DNA of 64,000 bases from Candidatus Bathyarchaeia archaeon (GTDB lineage Archaea; Thermoproteota; Bathyarchaeia; Bathyarchaeales; Bathycorpusculaceae). The stretch lies in NCBI GenBank assembly GCA_038882655.1, contig JAVZNT010000002.1, positions 98,790-162,789 of the forward strand, given 5' to 3'. Below are positions 29,845 to 40,912 of this stretch, piece by piece (the first letter of the stretch is position 1; each line of letters opens with the position of its first letter). The translations under genes and the position numbers were made by a program. Below the pieces are notes generated by a model, which saw nothing but the letters and a program-made list of their open reading frames with translations, was not told the origin of the DNA and made no database searches.

Positions 29845-31350
29845 ATGGGAGAAAACCTAAAAATAGCGTGCGGAGTCTTCGGCGCAATAAACTTTGAACG
29901 GCAACCCATATTTCCATACGTATATTGGGGTTTGAGGGCACAAAATCATAGGGGACACCAGTCCCACGGTTTTCTCACATGTGCTGATGGAAAATTCTAC
30001 GTTCACAGAAGCTTAGACCTTGTACCGAAAATAAAGGCAAGCGCCATACAAGAATGGTTTGGACGCCTTCCGGGACATATTGGGATAGGCAATGTTAGAT
30101 ATACAACTTCTGGGAAGACGGATGAGAAGTCTTTGATGAAGGGTACCCAGCCCGTAACCGCTTCTAAAAATGGTTTTAGGGTGGCTATCTCCTTTAACGG
30201 TAATGTTGTCAACACTTTTCAGCTTAAAAAGGAAATATCCAGAGAATTTCCAAACTTTTCTTATGAATGTGATGCTGACCTCATCTGCCACAAACTCCTA
30301 ATGGAACTAGTCAATAGCAAAGACCTTGCCGTCGTTGTGAAAACGTGTATGCAGGAAATTGAGGGCGCCTTTTCAGTTGCTGGAATAACCGGAGAGGGCG
30401 AATTTTTTGCTTTCAAAGACCCTCATGGGATAAGACCCCTCTGCGCTGGTCATGGCGATGACGGAAAAACATACGCCTTTTCTTCTGAAACTGTTGGTTT
30501 AGACATAAACGGTTTATGCCGAGACTTTGAGGTCGAGCCCGGTGAGTTCATAATCGTCTCAGGGGACGGGTTTAAACGTGAAAAGCTCATGAGCTCTGAG
30601 CGGAAAGCCTTCTGCGCCTTTGAGTTTGCCTATTTTGCCAGACCGGACTCCATTTTTGACAATAGGTATGTTTATGAGATTCGCGAGGAGTTTGGAAGGA
30701 ACCTCGTGAGGGAGAACCTGGACATTGTTAGGGATGCGGATATAGTTATTTCTATGCCGGAAACTGGCGATGATGCGGCGCTGGGGGTTCATGAAGAGTC
30801 TGGTCTAAGGTGGGAAAGGGCGACCAGAAGACATCGTTACGTAACTGAACGCGCCTTCATATTGCTTAACAAAGAGCGTTACGCCACCATAGACAAGAAA
30901 ATTAATGTTTTAGCCTCAAAGATGGATGGAAAAAGGGTCATAGTGGTGGATGACAGCATAGTCCGAGGCGACACAACACGTATCACCGTGGAGAAGCTCC
31001 GCAGAATGGGTGCTAAGAAGGTCTATTTGTTTGTGACTTTCCCACGCATAATTGGTCCATGCTTTTATGGGATAGACATGGCAACCTATGGGCAGCTTAT
31101 AGGCGCAAAGCACACGCCCGAAGAAATAGCAAAAATTATAGGAGCGGATGCTGTGTGCTATCAGTCAATAGATGGGCTTGTGAGAGCCACTGGTTTTAGA
31201 AAGGACGAATTGTGCCTAGGCTGTTTGACTGGCGAGTATCCAACGCCTCTGGCTCGGAAGGTTGCAGACGAGATGAAGAAGAGGTTTTTGGAAGGGGTTG
31301 AGGAAACAGGAAGGCTTTATGAGATTCCAGAGCTTGTCGGCGAAAATTAG
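29845..31350 (+). CDS. purF: Amidophosphoribosyltransferase
   Basis: Propeptide then CGVFG, VRYTTSG, CAFEFAYFARPDS, VVDDSIVRGDT, PCFYGID, CLGC. Confidence 0.95.
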   Translation: MGENLKIACGVFGAINFERQPIFPYVYWGLRAQNHRGHQSHGFLTCADGKFYVHRSLDLVPKIKASAIQEWFGRLPGHIGIGNVRYTTSGKTDEKSLMKGTQPVTASKNGFRVAISFNGNVVNTFQLKKEISREFPNFSYECDADLICHKLLMELVNSKDLAVVVKTCMQEIEGAFSVAGITGEGEFFAFKDPHGIRPLCAGHGDDGKTYAFSSETVGLDINGLCRDFEVEPGEFIIVSGDGFKREKLMSSERKAFCAFEFAYFARPDSIFDNRYVYEIREEFGRNLVRENLDIVRDADIVISMPETGDDAALGVHEESGLRWERATRRHRYVTERAFILLNKERYATIDKKINVLASKMDGKRVIVVDDSIVRGDTTRITVEKLRRMGAKKVYLFVTFPRIIGPCFYGIDMATYGQLIGAKHTPEEIAKIIGADAVCYQSIDGLVRATGFRKDELCLGCLTGEYPTPLARKVADEMKKRFLEGVEETGRLYEIPELVGEN

Positions 31351-31412
31351 TGGCAAAATAGATTAGCGTCCTCTGGTATTTAGCGTTTTAGCATTCAGGA
31401 GGGTGGCACATC

Positions 31413-32825
31413 TTGGTCGAAAAGATCGGCGTGCTTGTTGTTTCTTACGGCGCCCGTGAGGTGGCGATGGTTGACGCTTTCCTGCGGAGCACAAACTATA
31501 AAGTTGAGGTTTATGTTGCCGATAAGCAGCGGAACCCCTTTAACGTGAAAAATGCCAAGGCGCATGTTGTTATTCCAGACTTGAATGTGGAGGCTATATG
31601 CAAATTCGCTGAAAACCACAAAGAAAGCATAGACTTTGGCATTGTCGGTCCTGAAAAGCCCATAATTGACGGCGCCCGCGACCTTGTTGAGAAGCGCACT
31701 GGCATACCAATGATTTGCCCAACAAAAGATTACGCCATTGAAGCCAGCAAAGTCCAACAACGCCTACTCTTCCAAGAGACTGTTCCAGAAGTGAATCCTC
31801 GCTTCAGAATTTTCCGCCCAGAAGACTACAAAGGAGCAGAAGATGCCCGTAAAGAGCTTTACAGATGGCTTGACGAACTTGGAAACATGGCTGTTGTTAA
31901 GCCAGACAAGCCAGCTGCTGGAAAAGGCGTGGGCGTATGGGGAGACCACTTCACCACCCGTGAACAACTTTTCGAGCATTTTTGTGAAAACTTGCGGCAC
32001 GGCGCTGTCATTGTTGAAGAGAAAATTGAAGGAGAAGAGTCAAGCTTCCAAGCTTTTTGCGACGGAAAACATTTGGTGCCTCTTCCAGAAACGAGGGATT
32101 ATAAACGTGCCTTTGACGATGATAAGGGTCCAAACACTGGCGGTATGGGTTCCTACAAGGGTGTTGGCGAAATACTGCCCTTTATGACAGCGGCGGACAG
32201 GGAAAAAGAGCTGGAAGTTGTGAGGAGGATTTTTGATAAGTGGCGGGCTTCGGACAACAGCGCCTTGAGGGGAATTCCATTCTATGTGGCTTTCATGCAC
32301 ACCGGCAAAGAACCGAAAATTCTTGAGAACAACAGCCGCCCAGGCGACCCAGAAATAATTAACATTCTGCCAATTTTGAAGGACGATTTTGTTGATGTGT
32401 GCTTTAAGATTCTCGACTGGAACCTAACCCGCATAGAAGTTGAAAAGGCGGCGACTGTGGTGACTTACAAGGTGCCGCCGAGTTATGGTGGTTATGTCGA
32501 AACATTTCCAGAACGCGTGAACAAGACAGAAGTGAACAAGCCAGTGGATCTAACAAAAGCCTATGAGCTGGGCAAGAAGTACGGTGACAGAATCCGTGTT
32601 TATCCAGCTTCTATGGAGCTTCGCGACGGCGAAACTTACGCCTTAAAGTCAAGGGCTGTTTGTGTGGTTGGCGTTGGCGAAAATATCGAGGATGCCAGAA
32701 ATGTCTCCTTAGAGGGCATTAAAGCCATAAAAGACGGAGCCTTATGGCATAGAAACGACATAGCCTCGAAGCAGCATATAGAAAAGAGCATACGCCACAT
32801 GGAGGCGCTCCGAAAACGCAGATGA
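31413..32825 (+). CDS. purD: Phosphoribosylamine--glycine ligase (divergent)
   Basis: VGPE, AGKGV, DYKRAFDDDKGPNTGGMGS, NSRPGDPE, SRAVCVVG. Confidence 0.92.
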   Translation: MVEKIGVLVVSYGAREVAMVDAFLRSTNYKVEVYVADKQRNPFNVKNAKAHVVIPDLNVEAICKFAENHKESIDFGIVGPEKPIIDGARDLVEKRTGIPMICPTKDYAIEASKVQQRLLFQETVPEVNPRFRIFRPEDYKGAEDARKELYRWLDELGNMAVVKPDKPAAGKGVGVWGDHFTTREQLFEHFCENLRHGAVIVEEKIEGEESSFQAFCDGKHLVPLPETRDYKRAFDDDKGPNTGGMGSYKGVGEILPFMTAADREKELEVVRRIFDKWRASDNSALRGIPFYVAFMHTGKEPKILENNSRPGDPEIINILPILKDDFVDVCFKILDWNLTRIEVEKAATVVTYKVPPSYGGYVETFPERVNKTEVNKPVDLTKAYELGKKYGDRIRVYPASMELRDGETYALKSRAVCVVGVGENIEDARNVSLEGIKAIKDGALWHRNDIASKQHIEKSIRHMEALRKRR

Positions 32826-33904
32826 GAAAAGTCTTCATTTCAGACTGTGAAGGACCAATTTCAAAAAATGACAATGCCTTCGAGTTGACAGCCCACTATG
32901 TGCCCAACGGAGCGCACATTTTCACTGTCATAAGCCGATACGATGATGTGCTTGCTGATGTCGTAAAAAAGCCTGGCTACAAGGCTGGTGATACGCTGAA
33001 GCTTATACTGCCCTTTCTTAGGGCTTATGGCGTTACAGACCGCAAAATGCAGAGTTTTTCGGCTGAAACGCTTCTGCTAATCTCAAATGTTAAGGAGAGT
33101 TTGGCTTTTATCAGAAAGGTTGCTAACGCTTTTATTGTCAGCACAAGCTACGAGCATTACATTAGGGCGCTGTGCCAAGCCATAGACTTCCCTTCCGAGA
33201 ACGTTTACTGCACAAAAGTGAAAATGGACGATTATCCGCTTAGCCAAAAAGAGCAGTATAGACTCTGGGAACTAGCAACAGAAATCGCAAAAATGCCGGT
33301 AATCGAAATTCCGAAAGGCGCAAGTTCCATTAAAGAGTTTTCGAGACCGCATCAGCAAGTCATAAGGCGGCTTGATGAAATCTTCTGGGAAGAAATCGCA
33401 AAAATGGAAATCGGGAAAATCTTCGAAGAGGTTAACCCCGTTGGCGGACGTGAAAAAGCTGAAGCGGTTATGCAGATAGCCAAAAAGCTAGGCATAAGCC
33501 TTTCAGAAGTGGTTTATGTTGGCGACAGCATAACAGACGTTGAAGCCTGCAAAACAGTCCGCAGCGGAGACGGCTTAACAATATCCTTTAATGGCAACGA
33601 ATACGCCATAAGAGAGGCTGAAATCGCCGTAATGTCTGAAAAAGCGCTTATAACAGCACTGCTAACAGTTGTCTTCTGTAAATATGGCAAAGAGAACGTA
33701 ATCGAGCTTGTAAACAACTGGAGCTTTGAAAGGATTAAAGAGCTTGATGTAGACGCGGAACTGAAAAACAAGTTTTTTGAGGCTTACGGCGAGAAGCTCA
33801 CACGCGTAGAAGTTGTCACGGCAGCAAACATGGAGAGGCTGGCGAAGGAAAGCACGGCTTTCCGCAAAACCGTGAGGAGTGAAACCATAGGGCGTCTAGG
33901 CTAG
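32822..33904 (+). CDS. HAD-superfamily hydrolase (EhaR-like)
   Basis: FISDCEGPISKNDNA (motif I), VSTSYE, GGREKA, YVGDSITD, FNGNEYA; ATGA overlap with purD. Confidence 0.82.
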   Translation: MRKVFISDCEGPISKNDNAFELTAHYVPNGAHIFTVISRYDDVLADVVKKPGYKAGDTLKLILPFLRAYGVTDRKMQSFSAETLLLISNVKESLAFIRKVANAFIVSTSYEHYIRALCQAIDFPSENVYCTKVKMDDYPLSQKEQYRLWELATEIAKMPVIEIPKGASSIKEFSRPHQQVIRRLDEIFWEEIAKMEIGKIFEEVNPVGGREKAEAVMQIAKKLGISLSEVVYVGDSITDVEACKTVRSGDGLTISFNGNEYAIREAEIAVMSEKALITALLTVVFCKYGKENVIELVNNWSFERIKELDVDAELKNKFFEAYGEKLTRVEVVTAANMERLAKESTAFRKTVRSETIGRLG

Positions 33905-33978
33905 GCTTGTCAAAGTTTTAATAGTCTAAAGCACCAACCTAAAATAATCCCAAACTTGAAGATGGAACGGGAAGTGCG

Positions 33979-34893
33979 TTGACTAAAAAAGAACTTGTTG
34001 AGGACACTTACGCGGAAGCCTTTGAGGGTATTTACTGTCGAGTGACCGTTACGGCTGATGATGAGGAAACACTGCGAAAGGCGGCACTGTACGCAACCGC
34101 CACACCATCCATAGTTATAGGCAGGGTTGAAGGCGGGATAGAAAGGTGGCTAAGCGAGAAGGAAACCCCAGACGGGCGTAAAGGTGTAATCCTCCAGTTC
34201 TGGGGCGGAATAGACCCCAAAAAACCCTTCTCAGAATCCCTCAAAAAGTTTGAAATTGAGCTCTCCTATCGCATAAGGCAGGATATTCTTGTAAAGCCCT
34301 TCACAGCGGTTTATGACGCTTTGCAGAATCCGTTGGGCAAAATTGACATGATGGAACGCGTCGGCCACTGTGGGGATGGCTACGAGTGGGAGGAAAAACG
34401 TCACAACCGCAATATCATAGTTGTGCCGATAATGGTTCCAGACTTTATAATAGAGCGGTTTTTGGGATATGCTCGCGGCGGCGTCATGGGCGCTAATTTC
34501 TGGATAATGTGCAAAACAAAAGAAGCCGTTATGGAAGCTGGAGAAAAGGCGCTTCAAGCCATCCACAAGGTGGAAGGTGTAGTTACGCCCTTTGACATTT
34601 GCTCTGCTGGTTCAAAGCCGGAAACTCGTTATCCATGGATAGGACCAACTACAAACCACCCTTACTGTCCATCATTAAAGAAAAGGCTTGGCAAAGAGTC
34701 AAAAGTTCCAGAAGGCGTAAACTACATCCCAGAAATCGTAATTAACGGAGTTTCACTTGAGGCGGTCAAAAAGGCCATGAAAGCCGGAATAGAAGCCGCC
34801 CTAACGGTGAAAGGAGTGGTGAAAATTTCAGCTGGAAATTATGGCGGGAAACTTGGCGATTACAAAATTTATCTGCGTGAGTTGTTCAAATGA
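33979..34893 (+). CDS. Formylmethanofuran--H4MPT formyltransferase-like protein (Ftr paralog)
   Basis: [42 protein letters not shown]; paralog-type [12 protein letters not shown] and GHCGDGYE. Confidence 0.9.
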
Positions 34894-35804
34894 AGCGTTT
34901 TGACGTTATAGGTTTTGGCGCCCTAAACGTGGACAAACTTTATAAGGTTAATAAGATTGCAGGACCAGAAGAGGAAGGCTTCATAAAAGGCTTCGAAGAA
35001 GCTTGTGGAGGCTCAGCTGCCAACACCATTATGGGCTTGGCTAGGCTTGGCTGCAAAGTTGGCTTTATTGGGAAGGTTGCCAACGACCGAGAAGGCAAAA
35101 TGCTCCTAGAAGACTTCCGTAAAGAAGGCGTAAACACTAGGGGCGTCATAAGGGCGAAGGAGGGACGCAGCGGAACAGTCATGGGTTTTGTAGATGAAAA
35201 GGGAGAGAGAGCCCTATATGTGGACCCTGGAGTAAACGACACAATAAGCTTTGAAGAAATAAACGTGAAGTATGCTTGCCAAGCAAAATTCCTTCATTTA
35301 ACCTCTTTTGTTGGCGAGAAGTCCTTCGAAGCCCAGAAAAGGCTTGTGGAAAATCTGCCAGAAGATGTTAAAGTGAGCATGGACCCGGGCGAGCTCTATG
35401 CAAGAAGGGGCGTGAAAATGCTGACCCCAATTTTGAAGAAAACTTTTGTTTTTATGCCAAATTCGCTAGAGCTGGCACTTTTAACAGGCGCGGAGGACTA
35501 TGTTAAGGGTGCTGAAAAACTATTGGAGCTTGGAGTGAAAATTGTTGCAGTTAAACTCGCTGGCAAAGGATGCTATGTCACAGATGGGAGGGAAAGTCAC
35601 CATGTGGAAGCCTTCAAAGTAAAGATTGTCGACACAACGGGTGCTGGGGACGCCTTCTGCGCTGGCTTCCTTTATGGCTTGTTAAACAATAAAAGCCTAA
35701 AAGAATGTGCTAAATTGGGCAACTTTGTTGCTTCGCGTTGCATAATGAGGATGGGTGCCCGCGCTGGGCTCCCACGCCTAGAAGACTTAAAACCGCTTCT
35801 CTAG
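34890..35804 (+). CDS. PfkB/ribokinase family kinase
   Basis: [19 protein letters not shown]; ATGA overlap with the Ftr paralog. Confidence 0.93.
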
Positions 35805-36617
35805 GTAGTCGATTAGGCTTTCGAAGATCAGTTTTCCATCCCCGTACTGTGGCATAAGCTTCTGTCTTGTCCAGTCGGGTTGCTGCCACCAATAGAAGGC
35901 TCTTTCCGGATGGGGCATCAAACCGAAAACCGTGCCTTCTGGGTTGCATATGCCTACAATGTCGTGGAATGATCCATTTGGATTTATCGGGTAACGCCCT
36001 TCCGCATATTCGCCATCTTTTGTGCAGTATCTGAAGACCAACTGGTCGTTATTGTAAAGCCTCTCTAAATACTGCTTCTCCTTTTCCTTAGCGAACAAGA
36101 ATCTGCCCTCAGCGTGGGCGACTGGCATACGTAAAACCTTGCCTTTTGGAATTTTCCTTGTGAATACACATTTGCCCTTATTTTCGTGCTTTATGTAAAC
36201 CCATCGGCAATTGTAGCCCGGAGGGTGATTTGTGGCAAGTGCCGCCTCTGGATAGGGGCTTATGCCATCAAATGCCGGGAGCAAGCCAGCCTCAACCAGC
36301 ACTTGAAAACCGTTGCAAATGCCGAGGATTGGGCGTCCCTCTTCCACAAAAGTCTTTAACTCTTTTTCCATTTTGGCGAGCATCCACTTCGCCCAAATTG
36401 CGCCGGCGCGCACATAATCTCCGTATGAGAACCCTCCGGGAAAAACTAAGGCGTTGTAGTCTAGAAGGTTTCGCTGTTTAACTACATCATTCACGTGGAG
36501 AATTTGGGCTTGGACGCCTAAATCTTCAAGGGCTGTTTTTGTTTCCGCGTCGCAGTTGGTACCGCCCACACGCAGAATGCAAACTTTAATCTCTTCACGT
36601 TTCATTTTAGGCTTCAC
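35787..36617 (-). CDS. purQ: FGAM synthase glutaminase subunit
   Basis: GTNCD, PGGFSYGD, GICNGFQ, AHAEG, GLMPHPER. Confidence 0.97.
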   Translation of the reverse strand: MKPKMKREEIKVCILRVGGTNCDAETKTALEDLGVQAQILHVNDVVKQRNLLDYNALVFPGGFSYGDYVRAGAIWAKWMLAKMEKELKTFVEEGRPILGICNGFQVLVEAGLLPAFDGISPYPEAALATNHPPGYNCRWVYIKHENKGKCVFTRKIPKGKVLRMPVAHAEGRFLFAKEKEKQYLERLYNNDQLVFRYCTKDGEYAEGRYPINPNGSFHDIVGICNPEGTVFGLMPHPERAFYWWQQPDWTRQKLMPQYGDGKLIFESLIDYLEKRF

Positions 36618-38994
36618 CGCCGCTAAAGGTGCGCTTCCACCAAGCCAACAACTCGCTTAGAGGCGCATCTACCACAACATCCCCTTCCAAGCCGTAAACA
36701 CGCAACCTTGGCGTAGCCATCACCTTTCCAATTTTGGCGAAGGCGCATCCACGCAGGATAGCCTCAAAATCCCTTTCATATTCTTCTGGAACTTCAACGA
36801 GGAAACGACTGTTAGACTCGGCAAAGAGGACGAAGTCGTTTCTGTCTAGACCCTCATTTGGGACAAGCCGCAAATCCAGTTCCATGCCATAGCCACCGGA
36901 AAAAGCCATCTCCGCCGCCGCAACAGCCAAACCACCTTCAGACAAGTCATGGCAAGCGTTAACTAAGCCATGGTCAATAGCCATAACCATTGCTCTAAAA
37001 GTCTTTCTGGCTTGGCTGGCGTGCACCTTCGGCACTGTTTTTCCGATAAACCCCATCAGCCTATAATATTCTGAACCGCCAAGCTCATGGCAGGTTTTGC
37101 CAACAATGTAGATGGAGCTGCAGGGCTCCTTAACGTCCAACGAGACTGCCACGCGAATGTCTGGAATTATTCCAACAGCCGTTATCAAAAGCGTCGGCGT
37201 CACTGGTCCAAGGGGCGACTCGTTGTATAGGCTGTCCTTCCCAGAAATGAAAGGTGTTCCAAAGGCTTTAGCGAAATCGTAGCAAGCCTCGCAAGCCCTT
37301 ACTAGGCTTCCAAGCCTATCGGGTTTTTCCGGGTTTCCCCAAGTGAAATTGTCTAGGAGGGCTATTCTTCTGCCGCCCACAGCCACATTGTTTCTTATGG
37401 CTTCGTCTATGGCTGAAGCCGCCATCCAGTAGGGGTCTACTTTCCCATACTGGGGGTTTATGCCACAAGAAATCACCAAACCCCTCCAAGAATCTTTTAA
37501 AGGCTTGAGAACAGCCGCATCGTTTGGACCGCCAAACTCCCCATGCAAGGGTTTTAGGACGGTATTTCCCTTAACCTCATGGTCATAGGTTCTGATAACA
37601 TTCTCTTTGCTTGCAATGTTCGGCGAAGAAAGCAGCCTCAAAACAGTGCTGGTCAAATCTTTTGGCTCCGGAAAAACTGGTTCCGTAAAAGCCGGCGGCT
37701 TGTACTCGGCGGTTCTGACGGTTCTGGGCGGTTTAAAAAGAAATGGGATGTCCAGCTCAGCCACCTTTACTCCGTCATAATAAATGCGCAAAATCTTGTC
37801 ATCAGTGTATCGCCCAATGGTGGTGGCTTCAACATCCTCGCCCTCAAAAATCTCCAAGACCCGTGCCAAGTTTTCCGGCGGAACAGCCAAGAGCATCCTC
37901 TCTTGAGATTCGGAAATGTAAATCTCCCAAGGAGCCAAACCAGAATATTTCAGTGGCACTTTGTCAAGCTCTACGACAGCGCCGCATCCAAAACGTTTGG
38001 CTGTTTCGCCAACAGCAGAGGATAAGCCGCCTCCACCTAAGTCTGTTATGGCTGAAGCCAATTCAAGGTCTCTGATGGCAATTATCGCCCTCTTAAGCTT
38101 CTCCTCCTCAATGGGATTGGCAATTTGAACGGCTGGTCTAGAAACCTCCTCAGACTTCTCCGTTAACTCCGCAGAAGCAAAAGTAACCCCGTGGATGCCG
38201 TCCCTTCCAGTTTTGCCTCCAGCCAAAACAATGAAGTCGCTTGGCTTGGCATTTCTCTTAAACTTTTTCAGTGGCAGAACCCCAACACATCCACAATAAA
38301 CAACCACGTTGCCTACATAGCTCTCATCAAAGCATATGGCACCGTTAACCGTCGGAATCCCCATATTGTTACCATAGCTTCCAATGCCGGCGACAACACC
38401 CATATACAGGTATTTTGGATGCTTAATCCCGGGCGGAAGCCTCTCATAAGGATAATCCAATGGGCCAAAGCCCAAAACGTCCGTACACGCAATAGGGCCA
38501 GCCCAAACCCCCAAAATATCACGTATGACGCCGCCAACGCCGGTGGCTGCCCCACCAAAAGGTTCAATAGCCGAAGGATGGTTATGGGTTTCCACCTTTA
38601 CAGCTATGCCGTAACTTTTCTCAAAGTGAATTATGCCAGCATTATCCTCAAAAACCGAAAAACACCAACGGGGATTAAGCTCCCTCGTCACCCCAGCAAT
38701 ATAAGTTTTGAAAAGACTATCAATTTCCTTTCCGTCAAACTTTACTACACTTTTGAAGGTTTTGTGAAAGCAATGCTCAGACCAAGTCTGCCCAAGAGTT
38801 TGGAGCTCAACATCCGTAGGATTTTTACCCTTCCCTCTAAAGTATTTCTGAACAACTTGCATCTCATCCAAGCTTAAACCCAAACCAAGCTCACGGCTAA
38901 CGTCCAACAGCTGCTGGTCAGAAGCTTGTGCCAACGCTATTTCAAAGAGCGGGAAAGACGTATCTCTGCGAATGTAGAGGTTGCCGCCGTTCAT
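36607..38994 (-). CDS. purL: FGAM synthase synthetase subunit
   Basis: WSEHCFHK, VETHNHPS, GRDGIHG, SESQERM, SGKDSLYN, HDLSEGGL. Confidence 0.97.
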   Translation of the reverse strand: MNGGNLYIRRDTSFPLFEIALAQASDQQLLDVSRELGLGLSLDEMQVVQKYFRGKGKNPTDVELQTLGQTWSEHCFHKTFKSVVKFDGKEIDSLFKTYIAGVTRELNPRWCFSVFEDNAGIIHFEKSYGIAVKVETHNHPSAIEPFGGAATGVGGVIRDILGVWAGPIACTDVLGFGPLDYPYERLPPGIKHPKYLYMGVVAGIGSYGNNMGIPTVNGAICFDESYVGNVVVYCGCVGVLPLKKFKRNAKPSDFIVLAGGKTGRDGIHGVTFASAELTEKSEEVSRPAVQIANPIEEEKLKRAIIAIRDLELASAITDLGGGGLSSAVGETAKRFGCGAVVELDKVPLKYSGLAPWEIYISESQERMLLAVPPENLARVLEIFEGEDVEATTIGRYTDDKILRIYYDGVKVAELDIPFLFKPPRTVRTAEYKPPAFTEPVFPEPKDLTSTVLRLLSSPNIASKENVIRTYDHEVKGNTVLKPLHGEFGGPNDAAVLKPLKDSWRGLVISCGINPQYGKVDPYWMAASAIDEAIRNNVAVGGRRIALLDNFTWGNPEKPDRLGSLVRACEACYDFAKAFGTPFISGKDSLYNESPLGPVTPTLLITAVGIIPDIRVAVSLDVKEPCSSIYIVGKTCHELGGSEYYRLMGFIGKTVPKVHASQARKTFRAMVMAIDHGLVNACHDLSEGGLAVAAAEMAFSGGYGMELDLRLVPNEGLDRNDFVLFAESNSRFLVEVPEEYERDFEAILRGCAFAKIGKVMATPRLRVYGLEGDVVVDAPLSELLAWWKRTFSGGEA

Positions 38995-39242
38995 TTCTCC
39001 TCCTCAGCCAGTATAGCATAATTGTCCTTTGTTGGATTAGCCAAAAGCCTCTTGCACATCTCCTCAGCCTTCGCCAAAGCCTCATCCCTAGAACCAGCCA
39101 AAACAACAACACTGTAAACCTTGCTGACGCTCACTCTCTCAACCTTATAACCAAGCTGCCTAAGCAAACGGGCGGTAGTTTCGCCCTCAGGGTCGCTGTG
39201 CCCCGGCTTTAAGCCAACCTCAATTCTAAGATGGTACTTCAT
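38991..39242 (-). CDS. purS: FGAM synthase subunit PurS
   Basis: LKPGHSDPEG...MCKRLLANP. Confidence 0.95.
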   Translation of the reverse strand: MKYHLRIEVGLKPGHSDPEGETTARLLRQLGYKVERVSVSKVYSVVVLAGSRDEALAKAEEMCKRLLANPTKDNYAILAEEEK

Positions 39243-39297
39243 AGGCTAAATTAGACCCGCAGCCGATTTAAACGCTTTCACCACAGAAAAGGCAAAC

Positions 39298-40395
39298 CTA
39301 CCTTCTCAAAAACATCTTCTTGCCTTTATAGAAGATTCGGATTCCACGAGTGCTTGTCACACGTCCTATGGTTTCGGCGCGCACTCCAGACTTTTCCAAG
39401 ACGTCAACCGCCCTATCCACATCTTGTTTGTCAATCACTATTGCGAAGCCCCAGCCCATATTGAACGTCTTAAACATCTCCTCATCGGTTATTTTGCCGC
39501 CAAGCTCGGAAGCAGCCCTCTGAATCACATCAAAAATTGGTTGAGGCTTAAAATTGTCAAACTCAAAACCTATACTCCGCGAAAAAAGCATCAAACGGTC
39601 AAACTTCAAGTAAGCATCACCAGTAATATGCACAGCAGCCTTAACCTTAACCTCATCCGCAACCCGCAGAGAAGGCTTAACATAAATCCGAGTGGGCTCC
39701 AAAACCTCATACACCAACTCCCTTTCAAGAGGCTCCGGAACATCAAACGGGTCGTATCTGCCACCCCAAAACTTAAACAAAACCTTCCGCGCCAAAGTCA
39801 CACCATTACTGTGGATTCCGGAACTTCGCAAACCAACAACAATATCACCAGCCTTCAAATCTCTACCATAAATAATCTTGTCAGCAGAAACTTCACCGAC
39901 AGTGGCAAAAACCATATCGAAACCCTTTCCCTCAGCAAAACCTCTAATCAACTCAGAAACGTCACCAATCTCGCCGCCGGGAACAACACACTCGGCTTCA
40001 ACGGCGCCCTTCACTATACCCTTCATCCACTCCCTAATCAAACCCGGGTCAGAAACTTGAGCATGAATATTATCCACAACAGCCAAAGGTCTAGCGCCAG
40101 AACGAATAACATCATTAACAGCCATAGCCACACCATCAACACCGATAGTATCGTACTTTTCAGCTAACTGAGCCACCAAAACCTTAGTGCCAACACCCTC
40201 AATCACAAAATCCAAATAAAAGCCATCATGAAAGGGAAAAATCATCCCATAAGGAAGTTGTACAACTTTCCCATAGCGGCTAAAACAATAAGTTCTTTGC
40301 AAAAAACGTAAAGCACCCTTCGCCCTAACCCTCAACCCCCTATTAACACCAGCACCAGCATAAGTAAATTCCCTAGGCAAACAACAACCCTCCAC
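39298..40395 (-). CDS. purM: AIR synthetase (phosphoribosylformylglycinamidine cyclo-ligase)
   Basis: YAGAGV, EGVGTK, AMAVND, SSGIHSNG, HITG, EMFKTFNMG; start may be a few codons downstream. Confidence 0.95.
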   Translation of the reverse strand: MEGCCLPREFTYAGAGVNRGLRVRAKGALRFLQRTYCFSRYGKVVQLPYGMIFPFHDGFYLDFVIEGVGTKVLVAQLAEKYDTIGVDGVAMAVNDVIRSGARPLAVVDNIHAQVSDPGLIREWMKGIVKGAVEAECVVPGGEIGDVSELIRGFAEGKGFDMVFATVGEVSADKIIYGRDLKAGDIVVGLRSSGIHSNGVTLARKVLFKFWGGRYDPFDVPEPLERELVYEVLEPTRIYVKPSLRVADEVKVKAAVHITGDAYLKFDRLMLFSRSIGFEFDNFKPQPIFDVIQRAASELGGKITDEEMFKTFNMGWGFAIVIDKQDVDRAVDVLEKSGVRAETIGRVTSTRGIRIFYKGKKMFLRR

Positions 40396-40455: not shown

Positions 40456-40536
40456 AAGGGGGCAGGCGGATTCGAACTTCACGCCGAAAGGAGAAGGGAG
40501 AAAATCATAAGCCGAAACCCCGCCTGCCTCTCCCTT
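40456..40536. other. GC-rich stem-loop element
   Basis: GGCAGGCGG (40461-40469) pairs with CCGCCTGCC (40520-40528); T-rich tract follows on the minus strand. Confidence 0.55.
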
Positions 40537-40912
40537 TATCAACCGCCTTTTGATGAACACTCTTGCAAACGATTTCGGCTGGGATACGAGTTTCACCAGC
40601 ATCCAGAAGCATCTTCAAAATAACATGATATAACCTCAAAAACTCGAGACCTTTCTTGCTCGTCTTATACAAAAATCGCTTTTCGGAAACCTCAGTATTA
40701 ATGAAACCTAGCTTAACTAGATAAGTCAAGTATCTGCTAAGTTGAGCATAATTTGTACTTAGACGTTTTGCAATGGTAAAGCGGCTTGCCCCCCTACAAG
40801 CTGCCTCAAGTATTAGCGCAATAGTCTCAAAGGAGCTACGATATCTTTTGCCGAAAGTAGTTTCATTTCCAATTCTGCAAATCGGTGAATCTTTCTCTAA
40901 AATGATCCCCAT
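40505..40912 (-). CDS. Winged-helix transcriptional regulator (HTH_45-like)
   Basis: YRSSFETIALILEA...NYAQLSRYL...YKTSKKGLEFL. Confidence 0.8.
   Translation of the reverse strand: MGIILEKDSPICRIGNETTFGKRYRSSFETIALILEAACRGASRFTIAKRLSTNYAQLSRYLTYLVKLGFINTEVSEKRFLYKTSKKGLEFLRLYHVILKMLLDAGETRIPAEIVCKSVHQKAVDKGRGRRGFGL

Follow-up and report, generated by a model that had tools for sequence, protein, structure and literature searches.

A purine-operon paralog of formylmethanofuran:tetrahydromethanopterin formyltransferase as a candidate glycinamide ribonucleotide formyltransferase in Bathyarchaeia

Described formyl transfer systems and the Ftr2 locus

The formylation of glycinamide ribonucleotide (GAR) to formylglycinamide ribonucleotide (FGAR), the third step of de novo purine synthesis, is carried out by PurN, a GAR transformylase dependent on 10-formyl-tetrahydrofolate (10-formyl-THF), or by PurT, the formate- and ATP-dependent enzyme that serves as an alternative solution in folate-free archaea. 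According to the relevant passages of two papers, in Archaeoglobi, Methanobacteriales and Methanopyrus no enzyme has been assigned to this step from at least 2011 onwards (Brown, 2011), and the gap was later extended to the anaerobic methanotrophic lineage ANME-1 (Chadwick, 2022). Here, a stretch of 64,000 nucleotides (the window) from a Candidatus Bathyarchaeia archaeon is described, in which a diverged paralog of formylmethanofuran:tetrahydromethanopterin formyltransferase (Ftr), of the EhaS type and named Ftr2 (33979..34893, + strand), stands among purine genes together with a HAD-IB-like phosphatase-fold protein (32822..33904, +) and a PfkB/ribokinase-family kinase of the EhaT type (34890..35804, +). 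Ftr2 is probably the formyl-transferring component of a purD-linked HAD-Ftr2-PfkB module that converts GAR to FGAR in archaea that use methanofuran (MFR) and tetrahydromethanopterin (H4MPT) and have neither PurN nor PurT, an interpretation supported by three independent kinds of comparative evidence drawn from sequence.

Canonical Ftr, known from the structures 1FTR/2FHJ, 1M5H and 1M5S, resembles Ftr2 in both Pfam lobes, in its full-length alignment and in the glutamate that stabilises the oxyanion. Ftr2 nevertheless falls in a separate clade, has altered motifs, scores below the cut-off of TIGR03119, is embedded in a pur operon and excludes PurN and PurT. With PurN it shares the place after purD and would share the net reaction; however, the two have no sequence or fold relation, and the donor of Ftr2 would be formyl-MFR or N5-formyl-H4MPT, not 10-formyl-THF. 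PurT also stands after purD, but it is an ATP-grasp enzyme using free formate, whereas Ftr2 is without a nucleotide-binding domain, and a use of ATP through its PfkB partner would be speculation.

Two further systems are related to this locus. EhaR, EhaS and EhaT, encoded at the end of the Methanothermobacter eha operon, belong to the same three families as HAD-Ftr2-PfkB and come in the same order; they are co-transcribed with a membrane hydrogenase and read as its subunits, while the triad of the window lies between purD and purQ. FhcD, from the bacterial formyltransferase/hydrolase complex (6S6Y), has the Ftr fold and a protonated-Glu mechanism and matches Ftr2 with an E value of 2.8e-32. 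It is, however, one of four subunits of a complex that carries methylofuran, and no Fhc partners were found at the Ftr2 locus.

The locus ties together the step-3 gap, the second Ftr and the EhaR/EhaS/EhaT proteins, and offers one cloneable candidate made of three adjacent genes. If the assignment is correct, Ftr2 would represent a third, non-homologous class of GAR transformylase, and formyl-MFR or formyl-H4MPT would for the first time be seen to donate a formyl group in biosynthesis, a role that Brown, in the passage on these donors, considered unlikely (Brown, 2011). It would also correct the genome-scale models and annotations of many uncultured archaea in which Ftr2 is counted as a Wood-Ljungdahl enzyme. 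No published link of Ftr2 or EhaRST with GAR formylation was found in a literature search (subscription journals not covered).

Distribution of Ftr2, PurN and PurT

Gene identities in the window were assigned by Pfam and NCBIfam profile matches, read against the cut-offs of the families. The proteins encoded there have near relatives among sequences labelled Bathyarchaeia. In the window genome (G000; an assembly of 1.02 Mb in 27 contigs, 84% complete, with the window at positions 98790-162789 of contig C2) there is no match to PF00551 (Formyl_trans_N), and PurT is absent above threshold, the best matches to TIGR01142 reaching 36.6 and 34.4 bits against a cut-off of 502. These two weak matches, a biotin carboxylase (36.6 bits) and a generic ATP-grasp protein, were rejected as PurT. 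The lack of PurN and PurT, which the original prediction had proposed for the purine cluster, was in this way confirmed for the genome, and it recurs in 41 relatives of the same order (27 of high quality, one of them a single contig of 2.2 Mb), with PurN in 0/41 and PurT above the cut-off in 0/41. An incomplete assembly was rejected as the cause, since the relatives that lack both genes include 97-99% complete genomes and the single-contig genome. Ftr2 is present in 38/41 of these relatives and purD in 37/41, and the two genes adjoin in 29 of the 36 genomes that have both. One genome, G034 (98% complete), carries purQ, purL, purS and two PurP genes on contig C13 (locus L096, 7993-11445), with no purD, HAD or Ftr2 detected, a pattern that reflects either a partial pathway through gene loss or an assembly gap.

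Across the class, 251 Bathyarchaeia genomes, each at least 85% complete, were searched with Ftr2, PF00551, TIGR00639, TIGR01142, TIGR00877 and the HAD protein; the counts are a manual tally in which genomes without a listed match were inferred from the totals. The Ftr2 search was bimodal, with orthologs at 54% identity or above and copies of the canonical paralog, Ftr1, at 46% or below. By this separation 127 of the 251 genomes carry Ftr2, or 129 with two recovered by inspection (G275 and G195). Among the 222 genomes that bear purD, 125 have Ftr2 only, 92 have PurN/PurT-like genes only, one has both (G147) and four have neither. Matches to PF00551 or TIGR00639 occur in 87/251 genomes, 33 of them above the PurN cut-off (TIGR00639), and G147 is the only one of the 87 in which Ftr2 also occurs. 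Full-length PurT-like genes, scoring 224-303 bits with TIGR01142, were found in 10/251 genomes, and 0/10 have Ftr2; of those checked, one is above the cut-off of NF006766 (G055, 471.9 bits against 339), and two have PurT as best hit and lie below the cut-off.

The purD gene itself follows the same pattern. Twenty-two genomes without Ftr2, PurN-like or PurT-like genes are also without purD, many of them retaining Ftr1, and Ftr2 was not found in 26 of the 29 purD-less genomes of the sample. Ftr1 alone is present in 79 sampled genomes, most of which carry PurN/PurT-like genes, and within a single family, f17, the Ftr2, PurT-like and PurN solutions are distributed over different genera. Ftr2 is therefore present where the other step-3 enzymes are absent and the pathway is present, and the anti-correlation with PurN/PurT and the linkage with purD, which the original prediction had named among its checks, hold across Bathyarchaeia, with one overlap in the 222 purD genomes.

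Six genomes appeared at first to have purD and none of the three genes. In G275 (C4:104139-105042), Ftr2 lies beside purD in at least five frame-shifted pieces with one stop, being either a pseudogene or the product of assembly indel errors; in G195 it is truncated by a contig end, and in G179 the contig ends inside the HAD gene. For G077, G086 and G124, which have purD and no Ftr2, PurN-like or PurT-like gene, no explanation was found on inspection. Two arrangements of PurN-like genes were also seen in the sample. G120 (C22:4919-7641) and G141 (C20:3590-6311) carry purD, a gene for a PurN-like protein of 274 aa and a canonical PurN gene consecutively, and in family f24 the sole PF00551 proteins are sub-threshold PurN-like forms of 270-300 aa, encoded apart from purD.

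The position of Ftr2 in the operon is consistent with this distribution. In the window, purF-purD-HAD-Ftr2-PfkB on the + strand converges on purQ-purL-purS-purM on the - strand; the start of the HAD gene overlaps the stop of purD by 4 bases and the PfkB gene overlaps the stop of Ftr2, so that the five genes read as a single operon. Families f10, f13, f17, f19, f26, f27 and f32 retain the block purD-HAD-Ftr2-PfkB, down to 50% identity of Ftr2, and HAD-Ftr2 follows purD in 15 families. The same place is taken by PurN in G120, G141, G174, G168, G068, G117 and others, and by PurT in G055, G125, G101 and G046, so that Ftr2 holds an operon position beside purD in which it is interchangeable with PurN and PurT. 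In G070 (f14) and G065 (f28), the order is purF-purD-[281-aa PurN-like]-HAD-PfkB, the best model of the 281-aa protein being PurN; in these lineages a PurN-like formyltransferase has replaced Ftr2 inside the same operon. Of 80 named genome loci of Ftr2, 77 have an adjacent HAD gene, 77 an adjacent PfkB gene and 67 an adjacent purD; where the contig leaves room for it, purD adjoins in 61 of 65.

The PurD protein also comes in two types. Scored with TIGR00877 (cut-off 288), PurD of Ftr2 genomes reaches about 235-275 bits against 300-505 bits in PurN/PurT genomes, and the types are only 25-33% identical. The PurD type swaps together with the module, except in G064, where HAD-Ftr2-PfkB is paired with the other type.

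For lineages beyond Bathyarchaeia, the complementarity was drawn from published statements. In the sections of the paper on these genes, Brown found neither purN nor purT in two Archaeoglobi, four Methanobacteria and M. kandleri (Brown, 2011). The corresponding sections of Chadwick place Ftr2 in Archaeoglobales, M. kandleri, Methanothermobacter, ANME-1 and ANME-2a/2b, and describe ANME-1 as being without PurN and PurT and Ftr1 as the only one of the two Ftr proteins that has been characterised; the presence of Ftr2 and the PurN/PurT gap are not connected in the passages on them (Chadwick, 2022). As far as those passages go, the two papers agree with the statement in the original prediction that some H4MPT-using archaea are without PurN/PurT and have a second ftr.

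Ftr2, its partner proteins and a possible mechanism

Ftr2 has both Ftr lobes at full length (PF01913, 150 bits; PF02741, 200.6 bits) and passes NF002554 with 354.8 bits (cut-off 297), but it fails the canonical Ftr equivalog TIGR03119, with 239.2 bits against a cut-off of 292.6. Its translation contains the motif strings, GHCGDGYE among them, from which an altered substrate site had been predicted. A separate canonical Ftr, the existence of which was to be checked, is encoded in the same genome: Ftr1, on contig C4, has the canonical motifs RIGQCIMTCPTT and YFGDGF and adjoins aRF1 and an FrhB-like gene. The two paralogs are 39% identical, and Ftr2 aligns over its full length with solved Ftr structures (E 2e-54 to 1m5s).

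A search of 1.84 billion cluster representatives found 707 proteins matching Ftr2, and the full-length representatives with R[IL]RQ and xCG motifs form one group. In a tree of 79 rows, the Ftr2 clade comprises 35 rows, with a support of 98 in the Shimodaira-Hasegawa-like approximate likelihood ratio test (SH-aLRT), and the canonical clade 37 rows (SH-aLRT 99). The Ftr2 motif is found in 34/35 rows of its clade, and in 114/117 homologs of a distant member, which include sequences labelled Methanospirareceae (ANME-1), Syntropharchaeum, Hydrothermarchaeota, Altiarchaeota and Methanocellales. In the Ftr2 clade, RxRQ(G/D)xLV replaces the canonical RxGQCxLT and GxCGDG replaces xFGDG. The alignment has 40 positions common to the Ftr2 and Ftr1 classes, E252 among them, and 12 that are fixed differently (R100/G, G or D102/C, V105/T, M125/G, C131/F, P223/A and others, given as Ftr2/Ftr1 in the numbering of P0001), the class-specific substitutions being fixed across phyla in two motifs that are otherwise conserved.

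The catalytic, oxyanion-stabilising glutamate of the M. kandleri Ftr is Glu245. E252 is invariant across the Ftr2 alignments and is aligned to E246, the Glu of EIVING, in 1m5s. Hemmann described that the conserved glutamate, Glu252 in FhcD, stabilises the oxyanion (Hemmann, 2019). Judged by sequence, Ftr2 is a distinct, ancient paralog clade that retains the catalytic Glu, and the shared positions, including E252, together with the 12 class-specific ones, make it very probable that the protein is an active formyltransferase whose substrate site is altered.

The HAD protein, of 360 aa and belonging to the EhaR/AF1437 family, has D-C-E as motif I (DxE, not D-x-D), an intact motif III and GDSITD as motif IV. 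Its predicted structure, with a predicted local distance difference test (pLDDT) of 94.5, finds its best fold match in 1y8a, AF1437 of Archaeoglobus fulgidus, with template modelling (TM) scores of 0.81/0.92 and a profile E value of 6.4e-51. That solved structure is of a protein to which no function is assigned. Homologs on contigs labelled ANME-1 carry the Joint Genome Institute (JGI) name "energy-converting hydrogenase A subunit R"; the HAD protein of the window is 32-33% identical to two of the proteins named EhaR by JGI, with E 2e-54 to P0426 (33%), and with an Atlas EhaR cluster score of 0.98 it is a member of the EhaR family. The gene occurs in 134/251 genomes, comprising all Ftr2 families and the two replaced lineages, and was found in 0/46 f24 genomes and in no PurT or PurN member of f17. 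By this distribution, the HAD protein belongs to the alternative formylation route and not to purine synthesis generally.

The PfkB-type kinase (PF00294, 188.9 bits; ribokinase TIGR02152, 174.8 bits, below the cut-off of 299.65) has a conserved GAGD motif. Kaster, in the part of the paper concerned with these genes, described EhaS as annotated Ftr-like and EhaT as ribokinase-like in Methanothermobacter, both co-transcribed with eha (Kaster, 2011). By analogy, HAD-Ftr2-PfkB corresponds to EhaR-EhaS-EhaT, the match of EhaS and EhaT being one of published annotation wording. The presence of the HAD and PfkB partners suggests a chemistry beyond a transfer by one enzyme.

Ftr2 would work like canonical Ftr with another primary amine as acceptor. 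The formyl carbon of N5-formyl-H4MPT or formyl-MFR would be attacked by the glycinamide amine of GAR or of a closely related derivative, the protonated Glu (E252) would stabilise the oxyanion, and the product would be FGAR, with the transferred formyl group as the future C8 of the purine. The donors should be available, since the genome has FwdA and Mch genes; these lie together on contig C7, in agreement with the earlier observation that neither fwdA nor mch is in the window. The transfer from formyl-MFR to N5-formyl-H4MPT proceeds with about -4 kJ/mol, and the energy of simple formamides is close to that of formyl-MFR. On these energetics, formyl transfer to GAR would be near equilibrium and pulled by the ATP-dependent PurL.

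A more elaborate scheme, suggested by the HAD and PfkB partners and rather doubtful, is that the HAD-Ftr2-PfkB triad forms a three-enzyme, ATP-driven bypass for GAR formylation. The phosphatase-fold HAD protein (EhaR) would remove the 5'-phosphate of GAR, Ftr2 (EhaS) would formylate the resulting riboside, with N5-formyl-H4MPT or formyl-MFR as a low-energy donor, and the ribokinase-like PfkB (EhaT) would re-phosphorylate the product to FGAR. One ATP would pull the near-equilibrium transfer, comparable to the ATP spent by PurT. Such a bypass would explain the place of ehaR-S-T at the end of the eha operon in Methanobacteriales: purine synthesis would draw on formyl-MFR, Eha would make good the reduced ferredoxin spent in replenishing it, and EhaR, EhaS and EhaT would not be hydrogenase subunits.

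The identity of the donor also bears on labelling data. M. stadtmanae is presumably unable to reduce CO2 to formyl-MFR, and its H4MPT-bound C1 units would come from serine. The labelling of purine C8 was called inconsistent by Brown in the passage concerned, C8 coming from acetate C2 in M. stadtmanae and not from acetate in M. smithii (Brown, 2011). If the donor is an H4MPT or MFR derivative, this conflict, as presented there, would be reconciled.

Competing explanations and the remainder of the pathway

The assignment of Ftr2 to step 3 is supported as far as genomics reaches, by the lack of PurN/PurT, the separate Ftr1, the anti-correlation and the purD linkage. Several points weigh against it. 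The sampled genomes are related and not independent, so the raw counts overstate the complementarity, and the clearly independent switches number roughly 3-4 only (within f17, within f28, and f13 against f14). In f24, f21, f14 and f30, many of the proteins counted as PurN are PurN-like ones of 270-340 aa that score below threshold, G147 has Ftr2 as well as a PurN-like gene, and ANME-2a/2b have PurN as well as Ftr2, according to the relevant passage of Chadwick (Chadwick, 2022). Ftr2 also passes the Ftr cut-off of NF002554 and retains the catalytic Glu and most shared residues, and by these sequence features it may still perform the canonical Ftr reaction. The strict co-distribution of the HAD gene is left unexplained by a one-step transfer, and the true acceptor may be other than GAR itself.

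A last point of this kind comes from 24 Euryarchaeota-type Ftr2 genes, out of 80 metagenomic loci, where no purD or PfkB neighbour was found; the HAD gene is nearby in two of the 24 and purM in two, and the other neighbours are phosphofructokinase (PFK), a class II aldolase-like gene, fructose-bisphosphatase (FBPase) and an M42 peptidase. The pur linkage of the paralog, as first proposed, was seen across Bathyarchaeia and not in these loci. At L106 (3822-6970) and L109 (3291-6433), both metagenomic, an ATP-PFK gene (PF00365) and a class II aldolase-like gene of 420 aa come immediately before the Euryarchaeota-type Ftr2 on its strand; at L113 it is preceded by FBPase_3 and an EhaR-like HAD gene.

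These neighbours bear on the explanation that survives best beside GAR formylation by Ftr2, in which the triad serves another ribose-phosphate or C1 task (precursor supply or recycling for PurF/PurD, or a cofactor) and GAR is formylated by an unrecognised enzyme, such as the ATP-grasp protein encoded at C4:13400-14614 of G000. The neighbours of Ftr2 beyond Bathyarchaeia are sugar-phosphate enzymes instead of pur genes, a simple formyl transfer would leave the HAD and PfkB proteins no obvious task, the triad genes of Methanothermobacter sit in the eha operon, and the orphan ATP-grasp protein has a best match of only 94 bits, to carbamoyl-phosphate synthetase. This explanation is nevertheless unlikely: other lineages have a bona fide PurN or PurT in the slot after purD, Ftr2 has given way to a PurN-like formyltransferase within the same operon in G070 and G065, the exclusion between Ftr2 and PurN/PurT is near complete, Ftr2 was not found in 26 of the 29 purD-less genomes, and the ATP-grasp gene has no pur linkage in the loci examined.

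Quite improbable is the proposal that Ftr2 formylates another amine of the purine pathway, replacing or besides GAR, either glycine, with N-formylglycine then ligated to phosphoribosylamine by the diverged PurD, or aminoimidazole carboxamide ribonucleotide (AICAR) in step 9. The distinct, lower-scoring PurD that travels with the module would fit the former, but G064 pairs the module with the other PurD type. For the latter, G000, G004 and G021 yielded no PurH, and the sole step-9 candidate of G000 is a diverged PurP-like protein of 494 aa with insertions, scoring 149 bits against a cut-off of 556. This PurP-like gene adjoins purC and purE in a second pur cluster (C15:18042-21678, L186), so that step 9 does have a candidate, and the complementarity of Ftr2 is with the step-3 enzymes PurN and PurT. 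Very improbable, finally, is a second canonical formyl-MFR:H4MPT isoenzyme of the Wood-Ljungdahl pathway, placed in the pur operon by the C1 demand of purine synthesis, since the full-length identity to Ftr1, the match to solved Ftr, the kept Glu, the NF002554 score and the constitutive transcription of both ftr-1 and ftr-2 in A. fulgidus are set against genomes with Ftr1 alone that mostly carry PurN/PurT-like genes, a distribution of Ftr2 that tracks purD and not Wood-Ljungdahl genes, class-specific substitutions fixed across phyla, and a step 3 that would again be left without an enzyme.

The original prediction had placed purF, purD, the Ftr homolog, purQ, purL, purS and purM at the coordinates given here, and all were recovered there with Pfam and NCBIfam; its Ftr homolog between purD and purQ likewise stood, but the HAD and PfkB genes of the same gap had been overlooked. 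The amidophosphoribosyltransferase gene purF (step 1; 29845..31350, +) reaches 322.9 bits with TIGR01134, below the cut-off of 350, and has GATase_7; purD, for a GAR synthetase of the diverged type (step 2; 31413..32825, +), has GARS_N/A/C and scores 256.5 bits with TIGR00877, below its cut-off. On the opposite strand, purQ, the glutaminase subunit of formylglycinamidine ribonucleotide (FGAM) synthase (35787..36617, -), scores 330.8 bits with NF002252 (cut-off 298), and purL, the FGAR-consuming FGAM synthase (36607..38994, -), 682.4 bits with TIGR01736 (cut-off 525.75). They are joined by purS (38991..39242, -; TIGR00302, 67.7 bits, cut-off 39) and by purM, the aminoimidazole ribonucleotide (AIR) synthetase gene (39298..40395, -; TIGR00878, 252.4 bits, cut-off 236.35), all four being above their cut-offs.

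In total, G000 carries purF, D, L, Q, S, M, E and C and the PurP-like gene; purC, on contig C15, is a long frame of 353 aa scoring 85 bits. The first gene of the purM-S-L-Q strand encodes a winged-helix protein (40505..40912, -; PF14947 HTH_45, 38.4 bits). This gene immediately precedes purM, in the same orientation, and its product may regulate the purMSLQ unit.

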